NCBI GenBank assembly: GCA_964658305.1 | Contig: OZ210885.1 | Location: 19,716,001 to 19,780,000 of the forward strand | DNA from: Leptogorgia sarmentosa | Taxonomy: Eukaryota | Length of the DNA stretch: 64,000 bases | Direction of reading: 5' to 3' | Shown here: piece after piece, positions 7,578 through 61,021 of the stretch | Numbering within the stretch: the first letter of the stretch is position 1 | Layout: the number at the start of each line of letters is the position of its first letter | Notes under the pieces: model-generated | Seen by the model: the letters and a program-made list of their open reading frames with translations, nothing else | Told to the model about the DNA's origin: nothing | Databases searched by the model: none | Translations under genes and position numbers: made by a program

Positions 7578-7610
7578 TACCCTCCGGGGGCGCGACTTAC
7601 AAACGTGGGC

Positions 7611-13008: not shown

Positions 13009-13072
13009 TCGATTATCTGTTGCTTTATTTGCCTACTAAATCGGCACTAAACTGTTTTATACCTTCAGAAGT

Positions 13073-21214: not shown

Positions 21215-23402
21215 GGTGGCCGGACATTTTGCCGAACAGACGGTTTGCCGACGGACATTTTGTCGAACAGCCAATTTGACGAACGGACAATTTGACGAAC
21301 GGACTTTTCGCCGAAAAGACATTTTGCGGAAAGGACAACTTGCCGAAAATGGAAATATAATGACAAAAAAACTTTGATAGCGAAGTTGTTTCGTATCATA
21401 ATCTTTCAAGTCTTTGACTACAAGATTACCAAAATTTCGCGATATATAAAGAATAACAAGACGCCTATCAGGCGTTCACTCGGGCTACATGAAGTTTATA
21501 AATGACGAACCCACTGGCAGTGCGCGTGGCATGACCATGAACCCACGCATGAAACGATTCAACGAAGATTTTCATTGGTTCAAGGACTTTGTGTCGCCCA
21601 CGCATGTTTTTTGCAAACTCGTGACCAAAAAAAAGGAAAATGGAAGCCCATTTTTAAACTCGGTCTACCTACGCTAGCCCGAGTAATAACATCCATTTAA
21701 CATCATTCATGAACATCAAGGTAAAAATTTATTATGTACATTATTTATTACAAAAGGCTAGTAACTGTTTTACAAATTCTGCGCAATAGCTCGACAGTAC
21801 GCTATCATGTTCTCGTAGGTGTCAATTTTCCCAAGAATATTTTTCAATCGGCTGAGGAATTCAGGCCAGCACTTGCTCTAGGAGAAGTTCGTTGCTGGCT
21901 TGTTCTTTCACTAGCTTGGCGGCCAATCGACGGATTGTTGGGTGGGTGATCGCAACACGAAGGTCAAACGAATGATGCCATCCTTCGATGGAATTGTTTG
22001 TTCGCGGAAGATCTTGCTCAACACGACCATGTACATTCCACAGAGAGACGGAGAATAGAGGACGGCGTCGACGACCATGTTGAACCACACCGATCCAAGT
22101 GGCCTCAAAATAGGACAGAAAATCTGACAGAAGTTCATCTGTTTCATCAAGAGACTCCATTAATTGCTGGAAAGCTTCTGTTACACGATTTGGTGGTACA
22201 AACGCAAGAGCTTGAAAAGACTTGATAATCCATGCATTATTCGGGTCGTCTCTGTACCATCCCTACGGTCCTAGCCTCTATAAATTTCTCCACAGGCACT
22301 GGCCAAAATGAAATAGGCATCCTTGGATTTCAGCTTCGGGAAAATGGTGTTGCAATGACTGTATCGCCGCCATCTCGAAATCGATCATCACTGTCAGCGG
22401 AGAGAGATTGGGTCGACGATCTTTAAGAAACTGGAAGATCCGATCGTAGCTATTTCGGTCTTTCCTTTTCGTGATGCAGTATACGACGGGCACAGTTCTG
22501 GATCCATTGGCGATCATGTGTAAAGTGTACAGCTGGTATCCATTCAGCGTGCTATCGAAAGTTCCGTGACAGAACCAATGTCTTTGGCGTACAAGAACGT
22601 CCAAGTTCTTATCAGTTGCGAAGACGTAAATATCTAGGTTGTCAGCGTGGAGTGCCAGGAACTCTTCCCCATGTGTAGTTTGGCAAATGTTGTCAGGAAT
22701 ATCATCACCATCTGGGGCTTTTCGCTTTCTTCTAATTATTCTTGCCAGCGTTTCTCTTCGGGGAAGACTGCCTGCAGCGGCAAGTGGAAAATCCTGGGTG
22801 CAGTTCTGGATGATGTTGCTGGTAGATTCGTCAGAGTTCTCTGCACGACGTTTCATTGCTGACACTGCACGTTGGACAGCCACATGAGATGGATCTGGAG
22901 GATGCGAATGCTCTGACGGTTCCTGCCATAATGTGTCTACGAGAGTCGAGAGTCTACCAGAGCATTCCTTGCATCGTTCGCATCTCCAATAAGATGTTTC
23001 TTCTTTCTTCTTATCCAAAACATAAACAAAACCTTCATAAATCAATTTGCGATTTCCCCGAGAACTTTGAATATATTCCATGATTCTCGAAGTGAAATTT
23101 GTTTACGTTGTGGTCTTTATATACGCTTGCTTGTTTGCGACGTGATGTCAAAACACATTCCTAACAAATGAGTCATCCGCTGCACAAACAAGCTACCAAC
23201 AATCAATATGGTTATGCACTGCTAATGACACATCATATAATGATGTTATTATACATCATGTAATGATGAACCATATAATGGTTATTTTACACAATAGTTG
23301 ACTGAATAATGAGTCACAACCCTAAACATTTTGATGAAATAAGTTACAGTCCCAAACATTCCACTATTTTCAGCAAGTTGTCCTTTCGGCGAAATGTCTT
23401 TT
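21215..23402 (-). mobile_element. Decayed MULE (Mutator-like) DNA transposon, one TIR truncated
   Basis: Left end has a tandem array of GGACATTTTGCCGAA-like 15-17-mers (21220-21350) that is mirrored at 23367-23402. Contains a FLYWCH plus MULE transposase. Confidence 0.85.
21780..23081 (-). pseudogene. FLYWCH-MULE transposase pseudogene
   Basis: YWRCERCKEC..HSH (FLYWCH); WFCHGTF (DGTF with catalytic D changed to H); MIDFE; GCLFHFGQCLWR; RTNNSIEGWH. A stop plus deletion separates 22278 from 22160. Confidence 0.9.
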
Positions 23403-23938: not shown

Positions 23939-25700
23939 ATGGCTACAGCAACAGCCGAAGTTGGAGTCTCTCTTCACAGTATAAATCCTGAAAGACAGTA
24001 TTTGTTTGCGCTTCGAGATGATTGCGTATGCTGCCCTAAGTGCGAAAACAACAATCCCAGTTGCTTTTCTCGAGAAGGATTGAAACATCATTATCAGACT
24101 ATGCACAAACAAGTCAACTTCACTGATGAAATTTTTGTCGCAAGAGTTGCAATATTACGTACTCGAGCAGCATCAGAAACCTTATCTAATTTGTTTGCAT
24201 TGTCTGAAAAGCGAAAGGAAACGGTAAGTTGACTTGCACCTTGAAAAATAATACATATATATTTTTATAATATAAGTAGGGTAAAATCTACAACGCGATT
24301 GGCTAATGAGCGTGCATTATAACAGCGTAATGCACACATCTAGCTAGTAAATTTCTCCCGCCACTTTTTTGTTTGACAAAAAGACAATAAAAGTAAATAT
24401 ATACTAAAAATACATACGTAATCAAAGGATGTGGTGAACAAGCACAATTGTATTGTGAAAGTGATAAAGAAGCGGCCAAGTTGTTCGGGTTATATTTAGA
24501 CCACAAATTGTCTTTACCGAAAATAGAGTCTAATGGCGAAGGAACTGAAGTTTGTGTTGAGGGAACTTCGTCAAATTCAATCTACAAACTCTGGCTTGCA
24601 AGACAACATTTATGCTGAAGCTATTTACTTTCAGTCAGTAAGTTAATTTGCAATTTAGGCATCCATATTTTGCTCATGTTTATGTAATTTTGCTCATGGC
24701 TATGCTAATTTCCTCATTCTATATATATTTGCTTTTCGTACTTCAGAGTGGCTTGAAACTTTGAATGTATGCCTGTAAAGTGTGAATTGTGATCATATTT
24801 GCTTTCTGTTTCGACATTTAGAAAAACCCCGTTTCTTCTTTTCCAACACCTAAAGAGAATGTGTTAAGAATGACGTGCGAAACACCGCTAACTTTACCTG
24901 CAAAACAGGAGAAGGAATTGTTTTTACTTAAACACTTATATGGATTTGACTCATTTAGAGAAGGGCAGCTAGAAGCCATACGTTCCATCACAGATGGTAA
25001 TGATACACTTGTCATAATACCAACTGGAGGTGGAAAAAGTCTAATGTATTTTGTGGCTGCTGTTATTATGCAAGGCCTAACTGTGATTATAGAACCATTA
25101 AAATTTATAATGGAAGAACAAGCTGAGAAACTATGAGCAAAACAAATTCCTGCATTCTACTACAATTCGTCCCTAACAGATACTGAGATGGACTATGTTG
25201 CAAACACCTTGTGTAGGCACGATTTACCTTACACTGTTCTGTTTACTAGTCCTGAATGCATTTCTTCTCGAAAGCTACAGCATGTCCTCAAAACATGGAA
25301 TGATTTAGGGAAATTGAGCTTCATCGCAGTTGATGAGGCTCACTGCATCGATGCATGGGGTCATGGTTTTTGGCCAGATTTCCTAAAACTTGGACACCTG
25401 AAAGATTTAGATGTTCCCATGGTTGCCCTTACTGGGACAGCAACAGAAAGAGTAACAAAAACTATACTGTCTACACTTCACATGAATTTGCCAAAAGTTA
25501 TTGAACTAAATTGTTCAAGAGAAAACTTATTTATACAAATTAACCAGAAAAGTGATCATCCATTTCAACAAATAGTTGATTTTATTATGTCAAGCTATTT
25601 AGGACAAAGAGGAATAGTGTACTGTCTCAAGTGGAAAGATACAGTTGATCTGCACACCACTTGAAATCGAATGACATCCTTTCTGTTTCTGTTTCTTCAG
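23939..25700 (+). pseudogene. RecQ-like SF2 helicase of AcademH, truncated, with an upstream C2H2-like exon
   Basis: FREGQLEAI, IPTGGGKS (motif I), VDEAHC (motif II), ALTGTA (motif III), GIVYC (motif IV). In-frame TGA at 25134-25136. Exon 23939 to about 24223 has CPKC..HYQTMH followed by GTAAGT. Confidence 0.88.
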
Positions 25701-25723
25701 TGGCATGGAAATTATTTATTGAA

Positions 25724-27540
25724 TTAGGACGATTGTGATGATTGTGAAGAGTCAATGTAAGAGTAATCAGCTGACACTTTAACTTCTGTTGATACGGAAT
25801 ATGATTGCGTGGATAAGCAATGATCACATTCTTTTTCAGTCATTTTACTTAATGGTTTTTCTGTTGAAATGTTTAGACCATCATGTAGTAAGTTAGTAAA
25901 ATAACAATCAAGATGCTTATTCCACAGTTCGTGTTTTTTATTGTTTTCCAGGCTAATGTCCTCAAATTTAAAGTTTATGACATTGTGTTGACTTTGGCAT
26001 GCAGTCTCTGTTGACATTAGCAACTAGGTTTGGAATTAACATTCCTCTTACAGTAAAGTTCCACATATTACTTCCATAGGCTTTAAACAGTCGATGATGC
26101 CGCTTATTTCCACGGTACATGTTGACATTATCTATAAGCAACAACAATGGCATCTCTTGTGGTGTAGAGGCTGAAACATGCTTTGTTTTGTTTTCTAACT
26201 GCTGGTCAAGATAATTCATCAATGTGTTCCAATGAAGAGTAAGACCACACTTATTGAGTATATTAACCATGCGGCAACCAGCACCATACGAGACAAGCAA
26301 GATTGTAAAAAATAGTGTTACATCATTTCTGCAGTGTCGATTTTGCAAGCTTGTCAATAATGATAAAGCATGTATAGCACATTTTGGTTTCCAGTCTGAA
26401 ATTTCACTTTCAGGAAATAAACTTTGAATAACACATGTTAGTAATGGGCAGTCTCTTGTAAAATTCAATTTCAAATTGTTGAACATATCACTAGATACCG
26501 TTTCCTCGAGCGAAGTTGCACCACGCCTAATACCAAGATCCACTAGTTCAGATAATTTATCATACTCTGATATCATGACTGACGTTTCTGTGGCTGAAAG
26601 TGAATTGTCTGGGCTACTTTGCAACAAAACTTTCAACTCTCTTTCATAAATTCGATCAACACAGTTTGTTAATTGAGTAATACTTTCCATTTCTTGATTA
26701 TACATATTGATCACAGAACGCAAGTAGACACTGCCTTGGACATCAGAATTAGACATAATTGTGTCCATTATCTTCTTTGCATTGTTCCTACGAGCTGATA
26801 TCTCTCCTTGTAGTCGTAGAATTTCGGTGTTTTGGCTGACCTCCAAATCTGGTGTTTCATTTGACAATTCAAAAAAAATAGACTTTCTCATATTTCTGTA
26901 CTGTTTCCTTCGTTTATTATATGTAACAGTGGGGAATGCAGCCTTTACTGATCTGGTGGTCAAACTCTTGCTTTCAGGTAATCCATAACTTCAGCCCGGT
27001 CTGTTGTTTTTCCAGTACTTTCAACAAATTTTTCTTGAAGGCAAGATTGCAATACATTTTGTCTTTTTTTGCAAGCATCGCCATGTAACCTTTTTGGTGG
27101 GGGTTCATATTCACTTTGGTCAAGTTCTACTTCGGCTTTTCCTCGTTTACTTTTTACTGGTGTGCTTGTTATTAATGGAGCGTGTTCGTGACCAGGGTAT
27201 TCAGAGAACTCATGATCAGACAGTTCAGGTCCTTCCATAATAAAATATGCTTTATCTTTTGGTACACGAGAACGTTTATAATAACATTTATAATAACATT
27301 TATAATAACATTATGCAATGATATTCATATTATTAAACTGACTTTTGGAAGAAAATAAAAGGACAAAATAGCCTTATTGTGAATAAGGTTTACATTCGCG
27401 CATACATTGAAATGATATAAATTTAACACATTCGAGATATGAGGACAAAAGAGAGCAAAAAATAATAGTTTACCTTCCAAAGATAAATTATGTAGGGATT
27501 CATTCAATAGGTCAACGTCGTGATTCGAATCGTCATCCAT
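25724..27540 (-). pseudogene. Academ transposase N-terminal half (DUF6589-like), frameshifted and truncated
   Basis: ORF 25968-26963 has ILNKCGLTLHW..LLIDNVNMY..MWNFTVRG. It lies inside the TIRs, convergent with the helicase. Confidence 0.7.
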
Positions 27541-28436: not shown

Positions 28437-29415
28437 TACGAAATTTTCGCAAATATTGTCACTGTCATGCTTTGTAATTGTTAGACTTTCTCTGTTATTT
28501 TACTACTTGTAAAATTCTGGTAACAATCTATAGGTCTATATTAAAATGAATAAAAATATCAGCTTTTACTAACTTCATCATTAACAACAGTACTTAGCAA
28601 ATATTGTCATTGTCTATCTATTTTTCAGATGCAAAAGTGTATTCTTTATGGCCTGGATATCCCAGTGAAATACAACACTAAATTTAGCGGGGATGGGGCT
28701 AAAATGACCAGATTGACCGGGTTAGATTATAATTTAATTTTCAATTTTGAATGATGAGGGAACTGCAATGGCGGCATCCATATGCTTCTATCAATTTCTT
28801 TCCTATATAATACATGTGATAAAAATGTATAAAAATACAATATTTGAAGATGGTATCAGTTGTTAACAACTTACTCTGCTATTTCTAGAAGTTCTCTGTA
28901 CAAAGTCAGAGCATCATTCCAAATACTTGGTGGGTTATAGCCACCCTTGGTAAACAAATATGAAAAGTATTCATAATAAATAGATACCTCATGATAATCA
29001 CAGGCGAATTCTAGCATATCTTGATACTTTGGTTCTTCAATGATATGCAAATGATCTGCGGCATTAACATTTTCTGGCAAAAAATAAATCACATCTGGCC
29101 TCCCAGGTACAGTACCATGTCTTAATTTTCTGATATAATGTTGCTGTACCTGTAGAATTTCACACACAAGCACATTCAATTTTTTAAACGATATATTCAC
29201 ACAAACAACCCAAATTTCTCAATATTTCAAAACGTGCACTCTATCATGCAATCATGCCCTTTTTTTCGTCCCGGCGATTCGTCCCCGGCCGCCGGTACCA
29301 GTCACTCGTATGTTCTAATTTATTCTACACTCCCCACCCATTGGTCGGGGATCATGCAACCAACTAACAACAACGACCAATGTAAATAATATTCCACTGT
29401 TCAATGCATGCAATA

Positions 29416-32400
29416 TTAATAAAATGTCTGTCTTTTTATGTCACTCATAATTGCTGCACGACGTCTTGGGTTTCCTCGATTATTCGTGACTGCGGCTATC
29501 GAACTTGCATCGTTACTACCAGAAGACTCCTTACCATCAGCTGCAACAGTACCTTTGTCGTTGCCCGCATCAGTTATCGTTACAGGTTTGTCGTTACACT
29601 CAACCGGAACAAGACATTCGATCGATCGCCTAAGTTCCGTGAACCGTTTATTGTCGCCTACCACTCGTACCACAGCACCTCGAGCTTTACCATCACTCCC
29701 TTTGATCATCTCTCTTACTCGACCTAACTTCCACGTGTTTCTGGGGCGTTTGTCATCCTTAACCAGTACAACATCTCCTTCCTTGACTCCAGCTTCACTT
29801 GTTGACTTGTTACTACCAATCGCGTATCGGTGGAATTGTCTAAGTTCCGTCAAATATTCTTTCTGCCAACGGTTCCAAAAATGCTCTTGCAACAACCGTA
29901 CATACTTCGCCCGTTTGTTCACATCAGATCGAGAGTTGAATGTCTCTTTTCCCTTTGGCGTTGTGTTAGAAGACAACAATCTTCGTCCGACTATCAAATG
30001 TGATGGTGTTAATGGTTCTTCAATCTCGTCATCGTAGACATATGTCAGCGGTCTCGAATTCAAAACGCTTTCTACTTCTACTAACATGGTAAGCAATTCT
30101 TCGTACGTCAGCCTAGCTCCTCCAAGGGTCTTCTTCAGGCAATGCTTAGTGCAACGAACTAAACGTTCGAAGAACCCTCCCCACCATGGGGCTCGCGGCA
30201 TATTGAATCTCCACTCAATTCCCATTTTCATCGCAAAGTTCTGCACATCCCGACTCTTAAAAGTCTTCGCATTATCTGAAACAAACAGTTGATTTACTCC
30301 TCTTCGTGCAATAAATCTCTTCAGACACCTGATGAACGCGTGTGCCTGTAAGGTAGAAACTAGATCTAAATGCACGGCCCTTGAACTTGCGCACGTGAAC
30401 AGGGCTATATAGACCTTGTACATGCTTTTATCACCGCCGTATATATTTTTCACGTACAAGGGGCCGGCGAAGTCCACTCCAGTGTTCGCGAATGCAAAAC
30501 CTTTCTCTACTCTAAAGTCGGGAAGCTCTGCGGGGACAACCGGTCGGCATACCTTTCCTTGAACTTTCATACACGTCGAACAGTCCGCAATCTCGCGTTT
30601 CACCGTTTGTCTTCCTTTAATGATCCAATAACGACATCTCAGCTCTGTCAAGGTATCCTTTACCCCCCGATGTAGTACCTTTTCATGGCATTCTCGTACG
30701 ATCAACAATGTAAGATGATTCTTTCGTGGCAACAAAACTGGACACTTCGTCTCGTAAGGAAGAGATGACTTCCCCAGTCGTCCCTTACATCGATAAACTC
30801 CTGTACCATCAACAAACAATCCTAACGAGTTTTTAATCTGACCAAACTTATCGCCAGCAACAATGGGTTTCTGTATCTCTCGTAACCAAATTGTCTCGGC
30901 ATGTTCTAATTCTTTAACAGTCAGAGCTCCTTCCGCTGATTTCTGGAATTCTGCCAGATTAGGCAGCTGACTCTTCAACTTTGCAATGAAACGAATTACG
31001 TAAGCTGTTACTCGAAACAATTTCTTGCTACTGCTAAACTCCTCTAGACGAATACAGTTTCCCACAGATGCGTTCAAACTAGTCGTTAAATTTGTACACG
31101 TACTCTTATTCTTTGATTCCGTTTTCACTTCCTTCATAGCCTCTTCATCCTGACTGGTTCCTTGAGGTTTTGTTGGCCACTGTTCTTCGGGTAATTTCAG
31201 GAAAGTTGGACCATTCCACCATGTATCTGCTTCTATAAGCTGCGTTGCCTTCGCTCCTCTTGATGGCAAATCGGCTGGGTTCACGGCAGTGTTACAGTGG
31301 CTCCATTGATTCGGATCAACATTATTCCTAATTTCCAGCACTCTGTTCTGAACAAACTGCTTCCATGTCTTATCTGTTTGCACAATCCAGTAGAGGACAA
31401 CCATCGAATCTATCCAACAACGTATATTATCAATGTTTAAGATCTGCGACAACGCTCTTTGAACATTTCTCACCAGTCGTGCGAGGATAACTGCTGCTAG
31501 AAGTTCCAGTCTGGGTATTGTGCATCCACTAAGTGGGGCTACTCTTGTCTTGGCTGCAACTAACACCACACGAATGTCACTTGGATATACAATTCTAATG
31601 TAAACAGCTGCGGCGTAAGCGTAAGAAGACGCATCACTAAAGCCATGCAACTCAATTGACGCGGTCTCGAGATCATTTCCATTAAAATAACAACGACTTA
31701 ATTAGACAGTTCCAGCATTGCTAAGTTCCTTTAACCAACGCTCATACGACTCCTTCAACTCTGGAGTAAGTTCATCATCCCAATCACCTTTCATCTCGCA
31801 TATCTTCTGAAAGAGAACTTTCATATCCACAATTATTGGCGATATCCAACCAAGAGGATCATACACTTGTGCCGTTACCTTTAGAACTGTTCGCTTTGTT
31901 ACTGGTAAATTGGCTGCTACTTCTAGAATGGGTTTGAAGTCAATTATCAGTTCGTCGGTACGGTGGTTCCACAAAAGTCCCAAGACCTTGTGCTCTATTT
32001 CTTCGTTGATCTCGTGGTCAACACCCAGTGTGGTACTCGTATAGCTGTGGTCATCTTCAATGACTGATCTAGTTTCTTGGGCTTCGTATCCAGCACAATC
32101 AGATTCTCGTATTCTTTAGATTAATTCCGAGGAATTGGACGACCACTTTCTCAGGTTACATCCAGCTTCCAACATTCTCAACTTCGATTTAAGGAACAAC
32201 TGATATGCTTCTTCCACGCTTTGATCTCCACTTGTGAGGTCGTCAACATACAATGCTTCGAGAAACCTTCGTACAAACTCTGGATCAGCGACCGTGTACT
32301 TGTTGATATGGTATCTCAAGGTCGCATTAAGTAGGAAAGGGCTACTGGATACTCCAAACACTAAACGTGTAAATCTCTTCGTCACCACCTTCGGATGTTC

Positions 32401-34953
32401 TGAATCAACATCGTCTATCCACAGAAATTGCAAAGCATCCCTATCATTCTCATCTACTCCAATCATCAGAAAAGCCTTTTCAATATCTGCCACCAGTGCC
32501 ACCTTGAAACAACGAAATCTGAGCATGACGTCCATCAACAACGGAGACAGAGACGGCCCCGCATGTATACAATCGTTTAAGGATGGTCCATCTTTCTTAG
32601 CAGACGCATCGAATACTATCCGCAGTTTTGTAGTCTGTTTGTCTGTTCGAATGATTTCTCGGTGAGGCAGATAATGAATCTTATTAGACGTAAGCGTTGG
32701 ATTAACAGCTTCTATGATACCCTTCTTTTCTTGATCCCGGATAACCCTGTCATACTCACGCAAAATCTCGGGTGTCCTCCGCAGACGTCTTAACGTGGAT
32801 CCCAGTCGGGTACAACTTAAGTTGTAGTTGTCAGGCAGGGTTGGGTGACCATCTTTCCATGGGAGGGATACTTCATACCGACCATCTTTCATCTGAATCT
32901 CATTCAAAAACTGCTGATGGACTGCATCTTCACTTTCAGGAACTATTCCTATCGATTCAGTTTCCCAAAATTTGGCAACCTCTTTTCTTAACGAGCACGG
33001 TTCAGCAACTTCTTCGGTGTCTAGCCTCAGGACATGCGTATTACTCATACATACAGATGATTCAAGCAGACTCTGGCTCACTTCCACGACTGGACCCGAC
33101 AACACCCACCCTAAATGGGTTTTTACAGCCACTGGGCCACCATGTTTCCCTCTCCTCGTCTCACCCGTTACGAACTGCCAGTAATAGTCACTTCCGATCA
33201 GGATATCAACTGGCATATCAACTTTACCATCACAACTATCAGCCAAGTCAAGCGATGACAAGTGGTCATAAGAGGCCTCTGCTACACGAATCTTCTGCTT
33301 CGAAACAGGGGAACAGATTGTTTCCACTGAAAACGCATCTACATACAAATGGATTCCACCACCTGGTTTATTCAGGCTAAATTTTACAACATCACAGCTC
33401 TTAGGCTGCTCTTTCTCTGAGCCAAACGTTTTTATTAGCAAATTCTCCGTCCCTATCGCAGGTAATTCGAGAACATTTCTAATACGATTCGAAATATATG
33501 ACCGCTGTGACCCACTGTCGAATATCAATCTTGCCTTTACAGACTTCTTACTTCCAGGATTTGTGACTTCGGCCACAGCAGTTTGCAATAGCACTGAGGT
33601 TTCAGTGTCTACATAGTTGGTTGCTGTTGTAGCCAAATTTGAACCTGGTGGAGATTGCTGATCATCATTACTTCCTACTGGTTTAATCTTAGGTGGAGTC
33701 TTACATACTATACTATGATGTTTGGCTCCACACTTCATACATTTCATCTCTGACGGACAATTTCTCACTATGTGCCCGCTCTTCAAACAAAGGAAGCATC
33801 TCCCCTTCTTCTTTAAAATTCCCTTGCATTTCTCTGGATCAGTAACTATTGTACATTTGTAGGACCTGTGCCCAGGCTGATCACATAGGTAGCATGCAGC
33901 CTGAGTAGCGTCATTTGCATACAAGGCAGCTGCCGTTGTAGGGGGGTCCTTATATCTACCACCCTTGGGCCCCGGTTTTTCTGTAGACCCACCAGCTCCT
34001 CTGGTTTTCTCTCGTGCCTCTAATTCTTCCTTAAATATATCCAATAGCTTGGTTATGTCCCAAGTGTCAGATTTCATTTGTCGACTTATAATTAACTGAA
34101 ATTCATTGGGGGTCTTTTCCATCAAAACTGGGATCAGGAGACTCCCATACATCTCAGCACTAACACCAAGGGCTTGCAAGCTTCGTACATTTACTTCAAT
34201 TTGGTCATACAGGGGTCTCATACGTTTATCATTTGCATCAGTTACTGGGGGAATCTTTAATAATGAATCCATGTGAGAACTTATGACTAGCTGCTTATTG
34301 CCATATCTTTCATTCAAAATGTCAACTGCAATCTTATAATTTTCATTTGTCAGAGACAGTCCAGCAATAGACGCAGCAGCAGGTCCCTCCAAATACGACC
34401 TCAAATAATTCAGTTTTTCAATATCACTCAGTGATTCATTCGAGTGAATAGCTGCTTCGGAACTTTCGCGAAATGTTTGATATTCAGAATGTTTACCATG
34501 AAATTTCTTAATTTCTAACTTGGGCAACTTGATATTGTTTTTAACTCTCTCCGACTGACCGTTCTTGCCAGACGTCTCCGACTGACCGTTCTTGCTAGAC
34601 GTCTCCGAGTTTTTACTCGAAACTAAGCTGTTCTCTACACTTGCTACTTCATCAATTGGTAAAGCAAGTTCAATGTTCACAATACGCTCTTGAATATAAC
34701 ACCTTATCTCACTCGCTTCATCGATCTCTTTCTCGATATCTTCGTCGTCAATATTACCCAAGATTGACGCATCCAAATCGCTTAGTACTCCTAGTTTCTC
34801 GTTTAAAACATCGCTAAATGTTTTTGCCTTACCTCGATTTCCTTCGCTAAATTCTGCTAACAAATTGTCTACCTTGTCACATACTTTCTTCACGTAAGAT
34901 CTGTGACCTTGTCGTTGTCTCTTCAATCGCTTCACATCAATTTCCTCGTCCAT
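29416..34953 (-). pseudogene. BEL/Pao gag-pol single reading frame with two in-frame TAA stops (32116, 31702)
   Basis: ORFs 32116-34953, 31702-31983 and 29416-31650 share one frame. KLPKLEI, zinc knuckles, FDSGSQRS, YVDD, FSDAS, SDNAKTF and GGFFERLV are present. Confidence 0.95.
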
Positions 34954-34972
34954 ATCTTCGCTATGTGCTCAT

Positions 34973-34990
34973 ATCCGGCTCGAAGGACCA
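34973..34990 (-). promoter_or_regulatory. Primer-binding site complementary to the tRNA-Tyr 3' end
   Basis: Minus strand TGGTCCTTCGAGCCGGAT immediately follows the 5' LTR. Eukaryotic tRNA-Tyr ends ATCCGGCTCGAAGGACCA. Confidence 0.9.
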
Positions 34991-35444
34991 TGTAGAATTT
35001 CACACACAAGCACATTCAATTTTTTAAACGATATATTCACACAAACAACCCAAATTTCTCAATATTTCAAAACGTGCACTCTATCATGCAATCATGCCCT
35101 TTTTTTCGTCCCGGCGATTCGTCCCCGGCCGCCGGTACCAGTCACTCGTATGTTCTAATTTATTCTACAGTACCTCATCAAGCTCTAGTTGCAGCAATTC
35201 TGAAAATGAAAACCACAAACACTCTGTTTGCAGAGTATTTCATGTACTCAGCTCCCCAGAGTCTATAAGATCTTTAAAGAAATTGATCCACCAATTGGAC
35301 CATGACTTTCTCAAAAAGGGCCACCATGCTTCGATTCTTTGGTTCGAATGTGATGAGCCAAATACATGGGATTTTGCTCATAAAATGTAGCAAAATGGGG
35401 AGCGATTATAGAATACCCATCCACTTTTGAAACTATGACTTGTT

Positions 35445-49330: not shown

Positions 49331-50352
49331 ATTGGGGTTGGCGCATGTTAAAAGATAAGGAAGCTTAAACAGGAGTGTAAACAAACTAAAATAAAATTTG
49401 CTATATATGTGTAGAATGTTCTAAAAGGTTATCATACCAAATTGTTTCATGTTGCGATGCAGGCCAATGCGGAATTCCATTTTAGTAGAATAAACTTGAG
49501 GGCTTTATGGTGTCTGCTAGGAGATGCTTGCTGTAGCGAAAGGGTCGAATGTCATGTGCGCACATGTGTATAAATTGTGTGTTAGGGGGCGTCTTGGGCA
49601 TGGCTGTTGCTGTGTGGTTAGTTGGGGTCTTAGGGGGTGAATGTTGTGTAGGTAGGATAATTGCTTGTTACTTCATGTAGTATGTTGTAAATGTTATTGA
49701 TTTTGGGAAGTAATTGTGTAGTATCCCCGTTATTCAAGGTAATAATAGTTATTTGGGTCTATATGATAATGGCGACGCTGTAGTGGTTGTGAAATGTGAA
49801 GTTGGTGGATGCATCCAGAACAATACAAGATGGGTCGGGGAAAATGTCGTATATATATTTATACAGAAATTTATACGTTCGTGCAGCTGAGGGAGGATTC
49901 TATGTACAAGGTGTGAGGCCATATAGTATAGTGATGTGTTTGTGTCTTGAAAATATATATAGTAGATGACTAATTATTACCTTATAGCATGATGCTGTGT
50001 TTCAATGTAATTGAACAGTCTGTGGTCCATACAGTGTAAAAACTCCTATGTATATATGAAGTACAGGTCAGAGTGTTATGTAGTTGACGTGTAGGTTTTT
50101 GTGAACACATATTGGTGTAGAGGTAATTGGAGCCTCAATAGGAACAGTGGATTGTATCTGAGGATACATTGAGGCTGCAAAATGTTAAACATTGCACTCT
50201 AAAAATTACAGGCCAGCCAAACCTAAATGGTGCCTAGTTGTTGCAATTGTTCTGTATGGTTAGGTTAGGCTATCGTCCCTCCCTCTGTGGGCATGACCAT
50301 GTAGTGTTTAGTAGAATGTAGTCTATAGAAAGAGATGACATGGTGCAAGGTC

Positions 50353-50737
50353 TATGGTGGCCGATTCGTTTTTTGTCATTTATTGGAATGTTTTTTTAAA
50401 TGATTATCATTACAAAGTCAAAATTGAATGCAAATTAAAATTCGAATTAAACTACAAGTAAAATAAAAGTACACTATAAAGTAAAATCGTATTTAAATCG
50501 AGACACCATCGTTATTAAAAGTAAAATCATTTTGATGTTAAAACTAAAATCAATTATTGTCTCAAATAAAAGTACCATTCAAAATCAAATCAAATTTAAA
50601 ATCAAACGAAAACATTTTTTTATCGGCCTAGCGCTATCATAGTATCCCATCAGGCATTGCTAAGGTATTTACGCCCGCACTAAATCAATCGTTAAGGTTT
50701 GGAGTGTACTTGGTGTAAGCTATCTATGATGTATCAG
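50353..50737 (+). repeat. Left TIR (385 bp)
   Basis: Reverse complement of 53951-54344 apart from a 9-bp deletion (CGCTATCAT) near the tip and a few substitutions. Confidence 0.96.
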
Positions 50738-50763
50738 CACGTCATGCATGTGGAACATATAAA

Positions 50764-52058
50764 ATGGCTGATAAAAATGTTGCTTGGAAAAACTTCAAAA
50801 ACGCAATGGCAAACAAACATGCTGGGAAGAAATCTTCCCCAGACGCAAAAATTTTAGAAGATGAAGCAATTACAGTACAAAGATTAAGCGCGTATGTAAC
50901 TGGGAAGGCACAAAAATACACAAGAATTGGTGCCAGGGAATTTGTGCCGTATGAATTTGACGAGGTGACAATACCAAACATTCGGCGTGCGTGTTTGGAG
51001 CATTTTGATGTTGGCGAAAATATGTTTTGTGACATCTTGGCAGGTGAACAAGGACCTAGCTGCTTAACGGTAAAGCAGATACCAAGTCTTAATGTAGTGC
51101 ATGTACGATTCATTGAGGATGAAAATTCGAGTAAAGCGGGAACATCAAAGTCAAACGAATGTGCAAGGAGTAACTTCGGCAGGCCTAATTGTGTACAGGT
51201 GCGGAAAAGAAAAGCCGAGGTGTTACACTCTAGTTCTCCCCCTGTAAAGTTATCTGAGCGAAGCAGTCGAGCTAGTAGCAAATTTATCCCGAAAAGCATG
51301 TCTGCTGTCGACATGCTCAAACTCGGAAAGGAAATCAAGTCTCCACTAACAGAAATACAAGTATACCGTTTTAATTTTGGCAACATGTCATGGCCGGAAA
51401 AAACAGACAAAGTATTGTTTGAATTAAGTGAAGAACCAATCGGCACAGGGGGATTCCGTCAAGCATTCAAGGCCACCAGTAAAACAGTCGGCTACAAGCA
51501 CACCTCTTGGGTTATTAAAAAAAATTGAAAAAAACTGTTGAGGACATAACAGCTTTGGGTCAGACAGTGGAACAGCATACCAGAAAGAATGTGCAAATGC
51601 ACTGTTTGGCTCGAAATTTGGCTGCAAAATTAGAGAAAGAACTTCGAGAAACAAATAAGACAGAAGAGTTTGATGATGTATTTGCATACAACAACGTGTT
51701 TTTTGGCAAAATTGGTGAAGAATGTGTCACTGTTGAACAATTCATCTCAGGCACATTTGAAAAGCATGTGAATAACACAGGTGATGTCTGTGGAGATGCA
51801 GATAGTGATCTCTGTAAGAAAGCAGAGTGCTTTGTACATTATTCCTACATTCGATCTGAGAAGAAGTTGATGGCACTTGACATACAAGGCTGTAATTACA
51901 TTCTATGTGACCCAGAAGTGGCCAGTGAAGAGTCAAGCAAAGATGGAGAATTTCTTTTTTGCACTGGAAACCTATCAACTGAGGCTATCAAGCAATTTTG
52001 TGTAATGTACACTTGTAACAAATACTGTAAATTACTATGCTTGTCAGAGCTTTCCTAG
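50764..52058 (+). CDS. Alpha-kinase family protein (eEF2K/MHCK/TRPM-kinase-like) with an uncharacterised N-terminal domain; one frameshift at the A8 run 51517-51524
   Basis: IGTGGFRQAFKA, WVIKK, VQMHCLA, VEQFISGTFEKHVNNTG, FVHYSY..LMALDIQG, LCDPEVA and GNLSTEAIKQF..CNKYC are the alpha-kinase motifs in the correct order across ORFs 50764-51528 and 51525-52058. AATAAA at 52171. Confidence 0.9.
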
Positions 52059-52207
52059 GGAGTTTGAAACATATTTATCTACTGGCCTCTACTGACATTT
52101 TTATGACTATGATGTTACTGGTAGTCATCTGGACCATGTGATACTCTAATTAAATTTTGTTGTTTGCTTGAATAAAAAGTTCTGTTACTGGCTGATAGGA
52201 TTGACTT

Positions 52208-53862
52208 TTAGTTAACATATAAATATGCATTGACCCAGTCTTCGGGAGTAACATCATCTATATTTGGCACCCATTTCTCACATTCCCTTCGAATTGCTGG
52301 CTCCAGAAAATCATCTCCAATTTCCAGAACACCAGAATGATTTGCCACTTCTCTTAAGCTATGTTCTGTTACTGTCCACCCTAGATACATAGAGAAGTCT
52401 TCTAAGATAAGCACATGTAATACATTACATCACTTTATCCCATTTGCTAATAAAACGCACCTTGCCTCACTCCCTGTTATTTTTTGTATTTGGAACATGT
52501 TTAACATCATGATTTTTTCCTAATACCATAGAACATATAAAAAATATAACATACCACATTCCTCTAATCCATACTCTTCAGGGAATTCATAAATATGATT
52601 CGGAACGCCATTCGGTAACTGAGTATCTTTCTGCTGGCGGATTCTATGGATGTTCCATACAGTGTCTTTGAAAGAATTTAGCTCTTTTTGAAGGACTGGT
52701 ATAAGAACAAATGCAAGGATCATCCTTGAAAACAAAACAATCACATTTACATAATTGTATTCCTACTACTTACATGTACAGAGTATAAATAACTTTGCAA
52801 ACACTGACCTATCGGTCTCATTATGTGGATCGTAATGATTATTGCTTTTCAAAACAGAAAGTTGTTGTTTGAAGAATTTTTCCAGCCTTTCGTGCAAGTC
52901 TTTCCACCATCTCTCAATCTATTAAAAAATAAAAAGGTATACCAGAATTTTGATACCATGTTTTGATAACCAAACAATTACTGTCAAGTCTTTTAATTAA
53001 TATTTTTATCAAGACCCAAAGCAAGACAGTAAGAAAAAACATAAACAATCTATACCATCACCATATAGCCATTTTAAATTACTGAACATTGTCTTGTCAA
53101 GCCATAATTTCTTACTTGGTTAGATGTTGATGGTCCATATAGTACAGTGTCACTTGCATTTTCCATATCTCCATGATTATTCCGCAAGAAAGCATGCATG
53201 GTGGCCATTATTCCGGTTTCTGTTCCTTTATCCATGCGAAGATAAGAAGCCACAGTTCTGGTCTCATACAAATGTTCGAAGTACCAACGTCCAATAATCG
53301 TTGGATCTGAGTTAGTAGTCCAAATGCGCAGCCAGAGCAACTTTCTGCTACAGGTATCTAAACAGCCGTAGACAGCTAATGGGAAAGTGCTATTTTGATA
53401 GCCCATTAGCTTGTCGTGTCCGTCTACAGAGTGGACCCAGTTCGGGCCTTTCGTGGTGAAGCAACCTTTGGGTTTCTTTCTCTTAGCTCCAACAGCACGG
53501 GCTTGCAAGCCATCAGGGTCTAAATCATACATCACGGCATGAACAAGGTCTCTGGGTACGTTTAGTTCATGCTCTTGTCTTACTTTCTTGTGCATGGCCC
53601 GGTAGCCTAAAAGTTTTCCAGGGCCACTAAGTTCCTTCGAAACAGCATCTCTAACATCATCAACAGTCACATTGCTATCAACATATCTTATATCGAAGTA
53701 CCGTAGATGTCTGTCAAGAGTAGGGATGCTCCAGGCATACTGCGGAAAATCTTTACGGAGAAAATCTAACATCTCCTTTCTGTGAATTCCTTGTCTTACC
53801 AAGCTTTGCATCTTTTCTTTCAGCGAACAGTCGTTCTTCCAAGATTCATTTCTTCCCGCCAT
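52208..53862 (-). CDS. IS3EU-type DDE transposase (integrase-core fold), 4 exons, predicted 399 aa, apparently intact
   Basis: Exons 53862-53116, 52918-52809, 52724-52555 and 52380-52208 have GT-AG introns and join in frame (1200 nt). Motifs LGYRAM, VDGHDKL (D), GCLDTCSR, LRMDKGTE (D), NQIERWW (E), WNIHRIR. Confidence 0.9.
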
Positions 53863-53950
53863 TGTAAATTTACAACACAATTATCTAATACTTGGTGTAA
53901 GCAACCTATAATAGGCTGTCTATATTTCTTTCACGCATACGTCGGGTATA

Positions 53951-54344
53951 CTGATACATCATAGATAGCTTACACCAAGTACAGCCCAAACCTTAACGAT
54001 TGATTTACTGCGGGCGTAAATACCTTAGCAATGCCTGATGGGATACTATGATAGCGCTAGGCCGATAAAAAAATGTTTTCGTTTGATTTTAAATTTGATT
54101 TGATTTTGAATGGTACTTTTATTTGAGACAATAATTGATTTTAGTTTTAACATCAAAATGATTTTACTTTTAATAACGATGGTGTCTCGATTTAAATACG
54201 ATTTTACTTTATAGTGTACTTTTATTTTACTTGTAGTTTAATTCGAATTTTAATTTGCATTCAATTTTGACTTTGTAATGATAATCATTTAAAAAAACAT
54301 TCCAATAAATGACAAAAAACGAATGATAGCGATCGGCCACCATA
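53951..54344 (-). repeat. Right TIR (394 bp)
   Basis: Reverse complement of 50353-50737. Confidence 0.96.
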
Positions 54345-54405
54345 AAGGTCAATGTGAGTGGATGAGATCTCTTTCTATGGCTTCAGTATAACCACTGTGA
54401 AGTTG

Positions 54406-54463
54406 TCACAACATTCATCACAACATTCATCACGACATTCGTCACAACATTCATCGCACATTC
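54406..54463. repeat. 12-bp minisatellite (CACAACATTCAT-like, about 4.5 copies)
   Basis: Directly visible tandem units. Confidence 0.8.
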
Positions 54464-55393
54464 GTAAGCAGATTAAATCTGCTGATAAAGACCACATGTT
54501 GCGCGCTTACTATTTACCATCATTTAAAAGTTTTAACAGTTAAAGTGTACTATTTCTTGAGCAGATTTAACAAATTCTTCATGTTCTAACCTGCCTTAAA
54601 TTCCCAAAATAGTTTCGAGAAGGTTTAGGTAATAATGACTACGAAACCTTTCGGATTCAAAGTCTCTTCTTGTTTGATATATACAATTAGTAGTTTACAC
54701 CTTATATGCTACAGGCCCGACATTTAGTTTCAGTATACTGTGAAACCCTAAACTACAGTGGCATATGTGACTAAACAATGATTGCATATATTAGTGTATG
54801 TATGGTGGTGTTACAATATTCCCTGTATTTAGTTTCTTCATATTGTCCTTCAGCTGTGCATTGTTCATGTGAGGTGTTTCAAATTGGGTTGGAATCTTGA
54901 TTTTCAGGTTGCCAGTGTGTGGAGACTCTGATTGTGTGGTACCTCTAACGTGCCAGTGTCTTCTGTTTTCCGTATTGGTTTTATTTGTCTTGTTTAGGAG
55001 GTGGGATGGGTTGGGTTGTCTCGGTGGTGTCAGGGTGGTGAGTGGGTCTTGGAGGGGATGTATAGATTGTGGGTTGGTGTTGAAATGGGTTTCCAGATGG
55101 TGGATTCAGTGGGAGTTTTGTGGCAGTGGTTTAATTAGGTGTTGGCAGTTGAGGTGGTGGGTTGGTGTTGGTGGTGTCCGAGTTGTTATTATATTGTATA
55201 GCGAATATGGGGCTGTTGTTAGTCTTGGAGCACTTGGTGTTGTTGAGCAGTTTGCTTTGTGTTTTGTATGTTAGTGCTTTGTTAAATTGAGTTATTATAT
55301 TATTTTGTGTATATCCTCTATGTACGAGTGCGACAAGGAGATGGTTAAGTCTATTGTGTAGTTTGTCATTGTCTGTTATGATACGTCTGTATA

Positions 55394-57854
55394 TTATTGC
55401 GTTCTTACAGGGTTGGGGATGGAAGGAGTTTTGTGGTGTAGTAGGAGTGTTCTGTCAGTGGGTTTAATGTAAAGGTCTGATTCAAGTTTGTTATTGGGGT
55501 TGATGTAAATGGTTGTGTCCAGGAAGTTAACTGATTTGTGTGAGTATGTGTAATCAAATTTAATGGTCGGGTGGAATTGGTTGATGTATGTCAGGAATAG
55601 TTGGAGTTTTTCAGTGTCATGTGTCCAAATTGCAAATATGTCATCTATAAATCTTATCCACTCAATTGGTACAAGATTATTAGGTGCCTTTTTAAGTAGC
55701 TCCCTTTCTAGTATAGCCATGAATATATTAGCATATGTGGGTGCCATGGGAGATCCCATGACAGTGCCGTGAATTTGCAAAAAGTGCTCATTATTGAATG
55801 TAAAGGTGTTTTTGTTTAGTACAGTTGATAAGATCTCCTTCACGGATTGTTTTAATTCAGGAGTTATTGTGTGATGTTCTTCCAACATATCTATGCAGGC
55901 CTGAATGCCCTCATCATTAGGTATGTTGGTGTACAGGCTTCTAACATCAATTGTGATAAGTATGATGTTTTTTGGTAGATTTTGGTTTAGAGTGAAGATT
56001 CTGCAGAGAAAGTCTGTTGTGTCTTGTACATATGATGGAATGTTTTTGAGGATCGGTTTGAGGAGGTGGTCAGCATATTGAGATAGCTTGACTGTTGGCC
56101 CTCCACAACCTGAAATGATTGGTCGTCCTGGAATATCTGGTTTGTGGATTTTTGGTAAGAGGTATAGGTGTGGTGTTCTTCAATTGAGTCTGTTCTGAGA
56201 AATTTGTGTGTTGTGTTGTCTATAATGTTAGATTTGTGTAACTTGTTGGCAAGTTTTTTTGTTTCTGCTAGTATTTCAAGGGTTGGGTCATGTGGAATTT
56301 TATGATAATGATTTGAGTTGTTTAATTGTCTGTATGATCATCTAATAACCCTAACCCTTGCCCTTCTCTTTTTTTTTATTTTTATCAGCCAGATAAGAGT
56401 CTTTTGGCCAGATTATAATGGCCCCTCCTTTCTCTGCTGGTTTGACTATGAAGTCATTATCTTTCCTAAGATTGTATATGGAGTCTAGTTCCTGTTTCGA
56501 TAGGTTTGGTGGTTGGGATTTATGCTGTATATTGTGTGAAGTCTTGATGTCATGATAAACATTGGATATGTATTCCTGTAGGTTACTGTTATCTGGTGTT
56601 GGAGCGCTAGTAAATTTTGTTGGTAGTTTGAAGGGGTATTTGATTGTTTTTTCTGAATGTCTGAAATAGTATTTGTTGTACATGTTCTTTCTGTATGTTA
56701 GGAATGAGGTCTAGACTTGTTCATAGGGTGTGGGTTTGGGTGATGGGATGTAGTTAAGTCCTTTGGTGAAAGTGCTTATGGTGGATGTGGGTAGGTTTTT
56801 GTTGGACAGATTAATGACAGTGTTACTTAGTATATTTTGTTTTTCGTTGAGGTGTCAGTTGTTGTTGTTGTGTCGGTCATATTTCGAAAATTTTAGAATG
56901 GTGGTTTTGTTGCATGTGTTGAGGTGAGTGTTAGTGGGGGGTTGTGTTATTTGTGTTGTGATAAAATTTTGTATTTGTGAATGTATGTTTTGCATGATGT
57001 CTGTCGGGATGTTTGTGTTGGGCTTATTGGTTAGTGGTGTGGGTGTCATGTCTTGTTGTTGTGGGCCGTGTTTCTGTGTTGGTATGGGGTGGATTGACGA
57101 TGTTGGATATTGTGTGCAGTGACATGGGATGGGTGGGATGCGTAGTTGCGGTGTTTGTGTTGACGTGTGTGGGCGTTGAGTGGTGTGGTAAGGGGTTCGA
57201 ATTTGCATGAGTGGTGTGAATGTGGAGTGTTGTGTGTGGTCTGCTGTTGTGTTGGTCCTGCGTTTTTTGTTGTAGTTAGCAGATTGGGGAGTGTGTGTGG
57301 GGATTCGTTGGGGTGTGTTTGTGTGTGGAGGTGTATTTATATGTGCATGTTTCTGTGTGATTTGGGGTTGGGTGATGGGTGTTTGTCTAGGGGGTGGAGT
57401 GTGTGATGTTGTGTGGGTCTGTGCTGGTGTTTTTGTAGGTTGCTTGGTGCGTTTCAGTCCGTTTATTGTTTGTACTGTTGTGTTTGGTGGTGATGTTGTT
57501 CTTGGTGGTGTTATTTTATCTTGTTGTATATTTTGAGCAAAGTATATCTGTTTTGTCAAGAATCTTCTGTGCTGTGGTCTCGTTGCATTTAATTTTAAGC
57601 TAGTCTGTCCTGTGTTTTAGTTTGTATTTTGTGTCTTGAATCATGTGTTGGTGGTAGTCAATAGTGATGTCTAGTAGAGCGTGGGAGGCATCTGTCAGAG
57701 TGCTCTCCCAGCATTCTCCAAATTGTTTAGGTAGGTAGAAGGTGCATTTGTGGTTGATTTTCAGACCTGGTGGTAGTGTGTTTGTATTTTTGTGCTCTGT
57801 GAGTTGATCTAATTTAGTTTCAAGTTTGTGGAGTTTAAGTTTAAGTGTGTGCAA
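55394..57854 (-). pseudogene. Penelope-like RT polyprotein, frameshifted, with a long T/P/Q/H-rich N-terminal region
   Basis: VINLS, NLSKQEL, VKPAEKGGAIII, LPKIHK, RPIISGC, DVRSLYTNIP, QIHGTVMGSPMAPTYANIFM, WIRFIDDIF, VNFLDTTI, LYIKPTD. Confidence 0.92.
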
Positions 57855-58489: not shown

Positions 58490-61021
58490 TTATTCCGCAT
58501 TTCCCCAAACAAGATGTGCACACCTGGATAACAGTTCCTTTGCTGACAGTTCTCCAGCAATATATTCGGACCAATTTCTAAGGAGCTTTCCTTGCACTTG
58601 TCTGTACTGCTTTCGTTGTCTTCTTTTTATCTTCTCATCTGATACCAAACGAACTTGCATCTCAACAACTTGTGTTTGTTCGTGGAGGAGCCGCACCATC
58701 AAGTAAAATGAAAGATTTCCACGTTTAGCATGCCTATTGAGCATGCCGTGCCAACCCTCGACATCGTTGTTTGTTCTGACAACTTGGCCAAAGACACTCC
58801 ATGCTTCAGGATTCCAAAGATCTCCTTAAAAAGAAACAAAAAGTATTTATATTAATAATGTTTAAAATTAAAGGATCCAATGACCATGATGGATTGATTA
58901 ATAAACCAACCACCATAACAATCAAAACTTAATTTTATAGACAATCAACTACCTTGAATCCAGTTAACCCGAATATATGTGGCCAGGTCCATTAACTTTG
59001 GAGTAGTAGCTTTCCTGGCTAGTTTTTCAAACATGGCTGGTATATGCTCTTTTGGCAAATATGGAAGAGCCAAAAACTTCCTGCACAGCTTATGAGTGCT
59101 ATTGTCATTCTTGTATGCAGGGGCTAGACCAATATCTTGGATTTTTCTCCAAATGCATTGTGCCCAATGAAACGAGCACCCTTGGATCAGGACACCTGGA
59201 AATACAAATGGAATAGCCCTCCACAGGGCTTGCTCGAAGTCGAGAACAAACTTCTCAAGCTTTCTTCCTTCTGTTAGACGTTTGATGGCTTTAAGGACTT
59301 TCCGGTAATCTCTCTTGCGCTTTCCAGACATTAGAACAAACGCCAGTGGAACCTGCTTGGTACAGTCTCCACTTCGAACAAATGAGTGGATGCTGAACAG
59401 TTGCGCAAAAGGAGCTTTAACGACTTTAAATGTTCCATCGACATACCAAGTCTTCGATCTTTTAAGCAGACACAACATCTTCTCAGTCGCAAACACAAGA
59501 TGTCGCCGTCCACCTACCCTTAGATCTGACTGCAGGAAACCTGTTGGCAAATGGTCTTCGCTTATCTCGAAATCCAGTTCCAATGGTTCGGCTGGTCGTT
59601 TTTTCTGTCGGTGACGATTTGCAGCCCTTGCAAGATATTCAGGGTTCTTCAGTGCAGGTAATGGCTCAGTTGAATTTGCTATGCCTTCTTCTAGCATTAC
59701 CTGCAAATGAGTTCAAGAAAGCAGTGCATCAGTATGATTTATTACAAGCTCAAGGTTACTTACAACACTGCTACCAATATAATATATGTTTTGAATGTAT
59801 AGATACCTTATTGACAATTTCGGCTGCTGATGTGAAAATTTCAGTAGCTGCGATTTTTTTCACAGCTGTTGAAACTCTTGTTGCTGTTGCTGCTCCCAGT
59901 TGTGGTGGATGCATATGACGCTGTGATCCCCGTGCAAACCCATCCGCCTTCTGTGTTACTCGAGCTTTGCACCACAGTGATTTATTTCGAACACTGCATG
60001 TCCAAACTGTATTTCCATTAGCCCTCCGTTCCTTGACTGTGTAAGTGTAGCCTTCACTGTCTGCCAGTTTTTCTTTCCCTTTCTGAGATCCTTCTTTTAT
60101 TACTTCATATGTTGTGACCTTCGGCATTGCTATGTCATCATTTTGCACCGGAGTATCATCCTCGATTGAGGACTCTGACAACTGTCGCGGAACTTCAAAA
60201 CTAATATGGATGTCATCATTACTGGGTTCGACCTCCATTGGTGCAACTGGCGAGCTGGGGATATCTGGAAATAGAAGTGGAGAAACGTCATGAGGGGAAC
60301 GATCTATAACGGAGCTAAGTACTCTACCAAATCCTAGCAATTGCTTAGCATATTATATTCGCCCTTGACCTGTTTTGAAGCATATAAGGTGGAGACTGGA
60401 GACTTTAATACAACCTTGAAAATCCAGGTTTTTCAACTGTGAGGGTTTACTAAATAACTAGCATTTATTAAAATAAAGATAACTGTTATGTTAACCTGGC
60501 TTACTCTCATTACCTTCTCTTTCATTCGCCATCTCAAGCAGTATGTCGACTAACTCTTCTGCGATTGACTGATCACTCGGCTGATCATTGGCTGATAAAG
60601 TCTCCAAGTGGTCGCCTAGAAAGCATTACAGAGTATTAGACATCAGAACAAGGATATTTGATATTTGAAAATACTATGTGATATTTGTAGATAATGAGTT
60701 GATATCTGAAGATAGTCTAACACGATTAGCAGAAATGGTCTAATACGATTGTAAAGCACTGTGGAATGAAATATACTCACCTATTTGGGTTACACGCGTA
60801 CTTTCAGCGACAGGTAGGAGGAATCCAGCACTCATGTTTTTGCAATCCTCACATCGCCAGTCTACATCACAGCCACATTTCACTGATGTGCGATATTCGT
60901 CCCGGGTTATCCCGCTATCACACTTTCGGTGCTGCCATCTGTCGCATCCATTGCACGGCAAACCTTCCTGCCGGGCTCTAACAGGTTCCTTGCATCGAAT
61001 GCATATATCTTGTGTAGACAT
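58490..61021 (-). CDS. PHD-FLYWCH-MULE transposase, 5 exons, predicted 650 aa, apparently intact
   Basis: Exons 61021-60781, 60615-60514, 60333-59807, 59700-58953 and 58824-58490 have GT-AG introns and join in frame (1953 nt). PHD CIRC/CNGC/HRKC/CEDC; WTCSVR..C..HMH; YVDGTF, LDFE, GCSFHWAQC, RTNNDVEGWH. Confidence 0.88.

Follow-up and report, generated by a model that had tools for sequence, protein, structure and literature searches.

A decaying IS3EU/GingerRoot transposon in Leptogorgia sarmentosa with an alpha-kinase as its apparently co-inherited second gene

Here we analyse a DNA transposon at positions 50353-54344 of a 64,000-nucleotide stretch of the Leptogorgia sarmentosa genome (assembly GCA_964658305.1, contig OZ210885.1, positions 19,716,001 to 19,780,000, forward strand), called the window below. 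This copy is a recently inserted, now decaying, two-gene IS3EU/GingerRoot element, and its second gene, an alpha-kinase, appears from sequence comparison with many relatives to be a long-standing, co-inherited second gene of the IS3EU-type group. Cut-and-paste transposons rarely retain a signalling enzyme; in dozens of families of this group, purifying selection seems to have maintained an alpha-kinase that is apparently active. The explanation that in our judgement best covers the observations as a whole, and that we regard as moderately probable, is a decaying copy of an element whose kinase, in intact copies, is likely a nuclear helper enzyme. The features of the element are as follows (window coordinates; TSD, target-site duplication; TIR, terminal inverted repeat; pLDDT, predicted local distance difference test).

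50347..50352, no strand: left 6-bp TSD (AAGGTC), from repeat comparison and the empty-site joint
50353..50737, plus strand: left TIR, 385 nt; 9 nt of the outer 16-nt motif gone, inner copy kept at ~50625-50640
50764..52058, plus strand: intronless alpha-kinase gene; 1-nt frameshift near 51519-51528, Tyr for the zinc-ligand His at 52008-52010
50836..51135, plus strand: N-terminal domain of the kinase, predicted beta-grasp/ubiquitin-like (structure model, pLDDT 90)
51136..51280, plus strand: linker of the kinase with a basic cluster (RKRK), poorly conserved, median identity 12%
52208..52380, minus strand: transposase exon 4 with stop codon (splice model)
52555..52724, minus strand: transposase exon 3 (splice model; piece of the PF24764 match)
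52809..52918, minus strand: transposase exon 2, with E251 (splice model; piece of the PF24764 match)
53116..53862, minus strand: transposase exon 1, with D147 and D211 (splice model; PF24764, rva_4, E 3.9e-6)
53951..54344, minus strand: right TIR, 394 nt; outer and inner 16-nt motif copies both present
54345..54350, no strand: right 6-bp TSD (AAGGTC), from repeat comparison

The element has TATGG..CCATA termini and is flanked on both sides by the TSD. In contigs of all four sequencing runs examined, out of seven that contain the stretch (the read-level checks were made on these contigs, in one pass), position 50346 is joined to 54345 with six shared letters. This means that an empty site with a single 6-mer exists, and it confirms the ends and the duplication as read in an earlier, sequence-only reading of the window (the first-pass annotation). 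These empty sites could be paralogous, since the flanks at 50200-50346 and 54345-54500 are high-depth repeats (hundreds to thousands-fold, versus 100-185 inside the element). A 12-nt tandem array occupies 54406-54455 of the right flank. Contig depth summed inside the element is ~1-1.5-fold the depth of the contigs at the left junction (~100 versus 78 in X1, ~185 versus 128 in X2), which hints at a low copy number, depth being no measure of copy number.

The two TIRs differ by three substitutions and one 9-nt indel near the left end and are ~99% alike, close to the ~390 bp and near-identity first reported, and this similarity makes a recent insertion plausible, as had also been proposed. Each TIR of the group is bipartite: a 16-nt motif stands at TIR nucleotide 7 and a second copy lies 220-400 nt further inward, past an AT-rich spacer. 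Both copies are found in 22 of 29 relatives and the outer one in 26 of 29, and we take the motifs as predicted transposase-binding sites. The left TIR of the window copy is without the outer motif, and the copy may have lost its mobility. Between the inner end of the right TIR and the transposase start there is also a 24-nt inverted repeat (88%; 53889-53912 and 53958-53981), possibly an extra binding or regulatory site.

The transposase is encoded by four exons with GT-AG introns, according to a splice model inferred from homology, and the first-pass description of an uninterrupted 399-aa product holds. The protein has no internal stop, carries the DDE triad D147/D211/E251, and is 58-68% identical to five annotated full-length relatives, from which it deviates at 11 columns that are invariant among them. 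No N-terminal HHCC was seen in the translation, as judged by eye, and the transposase profile gave no significant sequence match in the Protein Data Bank (PDB). A total of 835 transposase relatives were found. Intron sites near residues 252, 288 and 345, as in the window, occur in one clade (L003, L005, L007, L009, L018 and L032), and sites mostly near 140, 204 and 288 in another (L014, L022, L025, L038, L045, L055 and L068); the site near residue 288 is common to both.

Convergent to this gene is the kinase, whose C-terminal half matches the Alpha_kinase hidden Markov model PF02816 with an E of 5.5e-28 and 98.7 bits (curated cut-off 21.3). The identification of the second gene as an alpha-kinase is thereby secured. 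The gene is also intronless, as first described, but it is not one open reading frame (ORF): the frame that begins at ATG 50764 ends at a stop codon at 51526-51528, just past the catalytic-lysine motif, and the rest of the kinase continues in another frame at 51519-52058. An assembly or sequencing error is ruled out as the cause, the same sequence being present in the X1 contig (50953-53159) and in the X4 contig (51343-51550), which comes from a separate study and has zero differences to the window across the frameshift. An intron at this place is ruled out as well, as relatives align through the site ungapped. Other indels occur close to the frameshift in the X2 and X5 contigs.

The second zinc-binding His, found in 99 of 106 relatives, is replaced by Tyr in the window kinase; the X2, X4 and X5 contigs carry a His codon there. 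An intact catalytic domain with its zinc site is thus lacking in the window copy and present in most relatives. In a list of 40 of the 71 differences between same-species variants, the kinase has 10 coding ones, of which 8 are non-synonymous, and the transposase has 13, of which 9 are non-synonymous. One of these creates a stop, and at the sequence level the variants look like neutral decay. With the frameshift, the exchanged zinc ligand and the neutral-looking variants, the working kinase that the first-pass annotation implied for this copy finds no support. The window copy is therefore of little use, its kinase being broken, and it is with an intact relative that a comparison of wild-type and kinase-dead transposition becomes feasible.

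In the relatives, the kinase is quite well preserved. In an alignment of 162 proteins, the catalytic and zinc residues are kept in ~92-98% of those covering each site: the catalytic Lys in 149/153, the two Asp residues in 110/117 and 107/113, and the four zinc ligands in 117/120, 99/106, 104/113 and 99/108. The model of relative P0001 (mean pLDDT 61) has the alpha-kinase fold and matches the structures of TRPM7, MHCK and eEF2K; among solved structures, the catalytic domain is nearest to the TRPM7 kinase (sequence E 2.6e-26, Foldseek 5.7e-13). PF02816 alone was detected by Pfam in P0001 (426 aa), in which no TRPM channel domain was found.

In front of the catalytic domain there is an N-terminal domain of residues ~30-118, with a median identity between families of 53%, compared to 43% for the kinase domain. 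No Pfam match common to the members and no PDB sequence match was found for it. Its model superimposes on Mpe1 (VIA Z 6.6, root-mean-square deviation (rmsd) 3.2, 75 residues) and on the DWNN domain of RBBP6 (VIA Z 6.3, rmsd 3.4, 74 residues), and the structural matches among those listed are mostly ubiquitin-like, PB1, FERM, CIDE and RA domains. As the scores are middling (Z < 8, Foldseek E > 0.001), we claim the fold class only: the predicted structure supports a beta-grasp fold, with no particular subfamily. The ESM Atlas values of 0.75-0.77 (TDP-43 N-terminal domain, GRHL1_C) are to be taken as a lead only. In 62 of 111 relatives the linker that follows contains a basic cluster, compared with a mean of 27 and a maximum of 38 after shuffling, and this cluster could possibly act as a nuclear localisation signal.

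We now consider the association of the two genes. A scan of metagenome contigs yielded 167 relatives of the kinase, and 80 loci were retained from these; many of them represent one family from several samples, and family counts are therefore fairer than locus counts. Clustered together with the window at 85% amino-acid identity, the 80 loci give 45 groups, and the layout is the same in every case in which it can be seen. A transposase is present in 51 of the 80 kinase loci, in all 51 downstream and on the opposite strand. When at least 1.5 kb of downstream sequence is available, it is found in 38 of 43 loci and in 17 of 17 families; on the upstream side, for which 12 loci offer 1.5 kb or more, it is found in none. 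Of the five loci without a transposase, four hold just a 5' part of the kinase, and the fifth is L011, to which we return below. A stable linkage of kinase and transposase, which the first-pass annotation had suggested for testing in related genomes, is thus supported across many families.

These loci also have the boundaries of mobile elements. Of the 26 loci with 700 nt or more of upstream sequence, 19 have the same terminus at 300-452 nt ahead of the kinase, the 6-mers flanking it differ between loci of one family, and L051/L052, L064 and L076 are complete elements flanked by 6-bp TSDs. In 26 of 27 family representatives, the interval between the kinase and the transposase holds no ORF of at least 110 aa that could be a third gene. 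Internally deleted derivatives of IS3EU, which retain the ends and parts of both genes, were seen as well (L008:1-1493, L064:102-2795 and L076:295-2363), and those of L064 and L076 keep their TSDs.

For the 18 of the 45 groups that had enough of both genes, trees and ratios of non-synonymous to synonymous substitution rates (dN/dS) were obtained from tblastn-mapped pseudo-alignments. The kinase and transposase distances of these 18 families are correlated with a Mantel rho of 0.83 (0 of 5000 permutations), their trees have 6 of 15 splits in common, compared to a shuffled mean of 0.24, and splits supported at 95 or higher do not contradict each other. In these alignments the co-divergence shows co-inheritance, not binding.

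It is important to consider at this point that the kinase could act on its own transposase, in which case the ubiquitin-like domain would dock on that protein and phosphorylation would switch the assembly, activity or turnover of the transpososome. Tight co-divergence suits a cognate pair, although physical linkage alone yields the same pattern. The higher conservation of the N-terminal domain relative to the kinase domain is as expected for a binding surface. The start codons of both genes lie just inside the near-identical TIRs, by 27 nt for the kinase and 89 nt for the transposase, so that a TIR-borne promoter would co-express the two, which is likely. Related elements (GingerRoot, Styx) are, on the other hand, mobile with no kinase reported. 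We hold regulation of the transposase to be somewhat unlikely, and nearly as likely as a target among host chromatin or silencing proteins, discussed below.

The kinase is apparently also kept by selection. Its dN/dS, suggested for examination at first pass, is 0.25-0.58 in five unsaturated pairs, and the frame is open in 29 of 38 near-full kinase loci. A profile search gave 451 kinase representatives at E < 1e-30. None of the 32 pattern matches in viral contigs and none of the 71 in prokaryote genomes proved to be a relative of the kinase. A search of longer proteins for host or fungal outgroups returned one retroelement fusion, which is weak evidence against a TRPM channel part in the relatives. 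Another option considered was a single capture of a host gene with neutral carriage thereafter, which is the one-off capture that the first-pass annotation had set against its own proposal. The window kinase is indeed a pseudogene with neutral-looking same-species variants, and related GingerRoot elements do capture host gene fragments (PMC6839031). Yet the kinase occurs in 45 groups with one layout, with dN/dS below 1, mostly open frames, retained catalytic residues and congruent trees, and neutral carriage is largely refuted and in our view very improbable.

Since selection keeps the kinase intact, it presumably does something for the element, and a selected trans-acting helper is, on the sequence evidence, highly probable. 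Excision and reinsertion by a DDE enzyme, with a staggered insertion that gives the TSD, is established cut-and-paste chemistry, and the transposase would on this basis bind both 16-nt motifs of each TIR, excise the element and insert it with a 6-nt stagger. The kinase, expressed alongside, would enter the nucleus by means of its basic linker, dock on a partner through the ubiquitin-like domain, and phosphorylate host chromatin or silencing proteins, with the effect that the element stays expressed. This target is a tentative proposal, to which we give a little less than an even chance. It is suggested by the basic linker, by the precedent of TRPM7, whose cleaved kinase is reported to move into the nucleus, with phosphorylation of H3 at Ser10 and Ser28 as a result (review, PMC12699267), and by the TET/JBP genes carried by fungal IS3EU elements, which have been proposed to counter silencing by methylation (PMC12730594).

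An action outside the nucleus would be a different matter: the kinase could work on cytoplasmic host pathways (translation, stress, innate immunity) or be a toxin-like addiction or drive gene favouring the cells or gametes that carry it. The host alpha-kinases eEF2K and ALPK1 are both matched in our sequence and structure searches, but in the sequence search they score lower than TRPM7. A ubiquitin-like header in front of an enzyme is a layout of Crinkler-type effectors. No antidote candidate is seen, 26 of 27 family representatives having no intergenic ORF of the length given above, and a broken kinase is tolerated in the window species. We consider this alternative improbable.

Several observations weigh against a nuclear helper kinase as the constant partner of the transposase. 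The window copy has lost its kinase while its transposase frame is still open. The loci of the linkage analysis were selected via the kinase and never via the transposase, and L011 (1533-4436), with a near-full kinase and 2.9 kb of downstream sequence, has no transposase match, unlike the rest of its own family. The basic cluster is present in just those 62 of 111 relatives. The histone precedent is weak, given that the identity to TRPM7 is just ~25% and that the substrates of alpha-kinases (eEF2, myosin, TIFA) are unrelated to each other. The kinase may moreover be dispensable, as the description of GingerRoot, of the same lineage, does not mention a kinase in its main text (PMC6839031) and Styx/REP9 bears other accessory genes.

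A broader form of the chromatin proposal can also be formulated, in which the second gene of IS3EU was ancestrally an alpha-kinase, in animals as in fungi, and this enzyme acts as a chromatin kinase; in animals it would dock by its ubiquitin-like domain and phosphorylate H3 or silencing factors, and so lift the repression of its own element. We think that this is unlikely as a whole. If true, this would make it the first kinase of a cut-and-paste transposon with an anti-silencing role, and such elements the source of many invertebrate 'TRPM6-like' genes.

The consequences for database annotation can be stated more firmly. The named kinase relatives come from soft corals (Dendronephthya, Paramuricea), Clytia, Saccoglossus and Pycnogonum, and all except that of Pycnogonum bear the label TRPM6-like or MHCK-A-like. 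In Dendronephthya, the closest proteins are XP_028396933.1 for the kinase and XP_028397102.1 for the transposase, and the contigs that carry them are equally long. The stand-alone genes of ~430 aa called 'TRPM6-like' or 'MHCK-like' in cnidarian and hemichordate annotations are likely transposon genes, as is probably the unnamed sea-spider relative, and they should be excluded from host kinome counts. An inflation of alpha-kinase annotations by such elements, anticipated at first pass, is therefore visible in Dendronephthya, Paramuricea, Saccoglossus and Clytia.

The window contains further mobile elements and remnants. A long terminal repeat (LTR) retrotransposon at 7123-13527 has 455-nt repeats that are 98.5% alike and broken gag/pol ORFs, and a second LTR element at 29151-35169, apparently very young, has identical 179-nt repeats and long gag/pol and integrase ORFs; from their motifs, we take both to be BEL/Pao-like. 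Decayed reverse transcriptase/RNase H-like ORFs together with a tyrosine-recombinase ORF (PF00589, under the cut-off) at 2545-5532 are presumably a DIRS-like remnant. Remnants of two MULE transposases, with FLYWCH domains, are located at 22278-23102 and 58945-60352. At 25137-26990, a DEAD-box helicase fragment, which we assume to be RecQ-like and possibly the remnant of an Academ-type transposon, faces a 340-aa ORF with no Pfam match, and the reverse transcriptase fragment at 55394-56179 (PF00078) is presumably Penelope-like.

Finally, we compare the element with known systems. IS3EU is defined by TA..TA ends and 6-bp TSDs and has been united with GingerRoot (Kojima and Bao 2023, PMC10045372). 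The described elements encode two proteins (PMC8232023, citing Kojima 2019), and in their transposases the first D is 100-300 residues from the N-terminus and HHCC is absent (PMC8232023). The window element has TA..TA (TAYGG..CCRTA) termini within its TIRs, a 6-bp TSD, two encoded proteins, and an integrase-like DDE transposase with D147 as first D and no HHCC. It is thus almost certainly of the IS3EU type, as first called, the assignment being made by these published features. IS3EU elements have been reported from Hydra, zebrafish, a beetle, an acorn worm and fungi, with structure and function largely unexplored (PMC11934779). The second protein of the animal elements is not named in the text at hand of PMC8232023 and PMC11934779; here it is an alpha-kinase.

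GingerRoot (Cerbin et al. 2019, PMC6839031) likewise has a 6-bp TSD, an integrase-like DDE transposase and relatives in corals and sea anemones. Its TIRs are 100-150 bp long, as opposed to ~390 bp here, and it bears captured gene fragments, with 0 matches for 'kinase' in the main text. With the host alpha-kinases TRPM6/7, MHCK A, eEF2K and ALPK1 (PF02816), the element kinase shares the fold, the P-loop-like GxG(G)xR motif, the catalytic Lys, DxQG, DP and the H/H/C/C zinc site at ~14-25% identity. It differs from them in being a transposon-encoded stand-alone protein of ~430 aa with a predicted ubiquitin-like N-terminal domain, and in having no channel, WD40, calmodulin-binding or ADP-heptose domains.

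A close parallel is found in fungi. In all TET-bearing IS3EU families, which are hosted by rust fungi and Tuber and end in TAYGG..CCRTA, the TET gene lies between the transposase and an oppositely oriented alpha-kinase (Kojima 2025, PMC12730594). The window element has the same ends, a 6-bp TSD and the same opposed genes, and it differs in having no TET/JBP gene between the two. The novelty that the first-pass annotation had allowed for the pairing itself does not stand, given section 4.1 of that paper. There the fungal kinase is treated in two sentences that give no function, domain layout or animal example, and 'kinase' is absent from the supplement, as far as the text at hand goes. Fungal and animal kinases are comparable at the family level.

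In the portions of the literature searched, the pairing is stated only in PMC12730594. The link of IS3EU to a kinase is not made in PMC6839031, PMC10853768, PMC3520738 or PMC5751038, and PMC4455052 was searched for IS3EU alone; Repbase or Kojima 2019 may already name the animal kinase. What is new here is that the pairing is constant and co-divergent in animals, that the kinase has a predicted ubiquitin-like domain, that the TIR is bipartite, and that genes in the databases are mislabelled.

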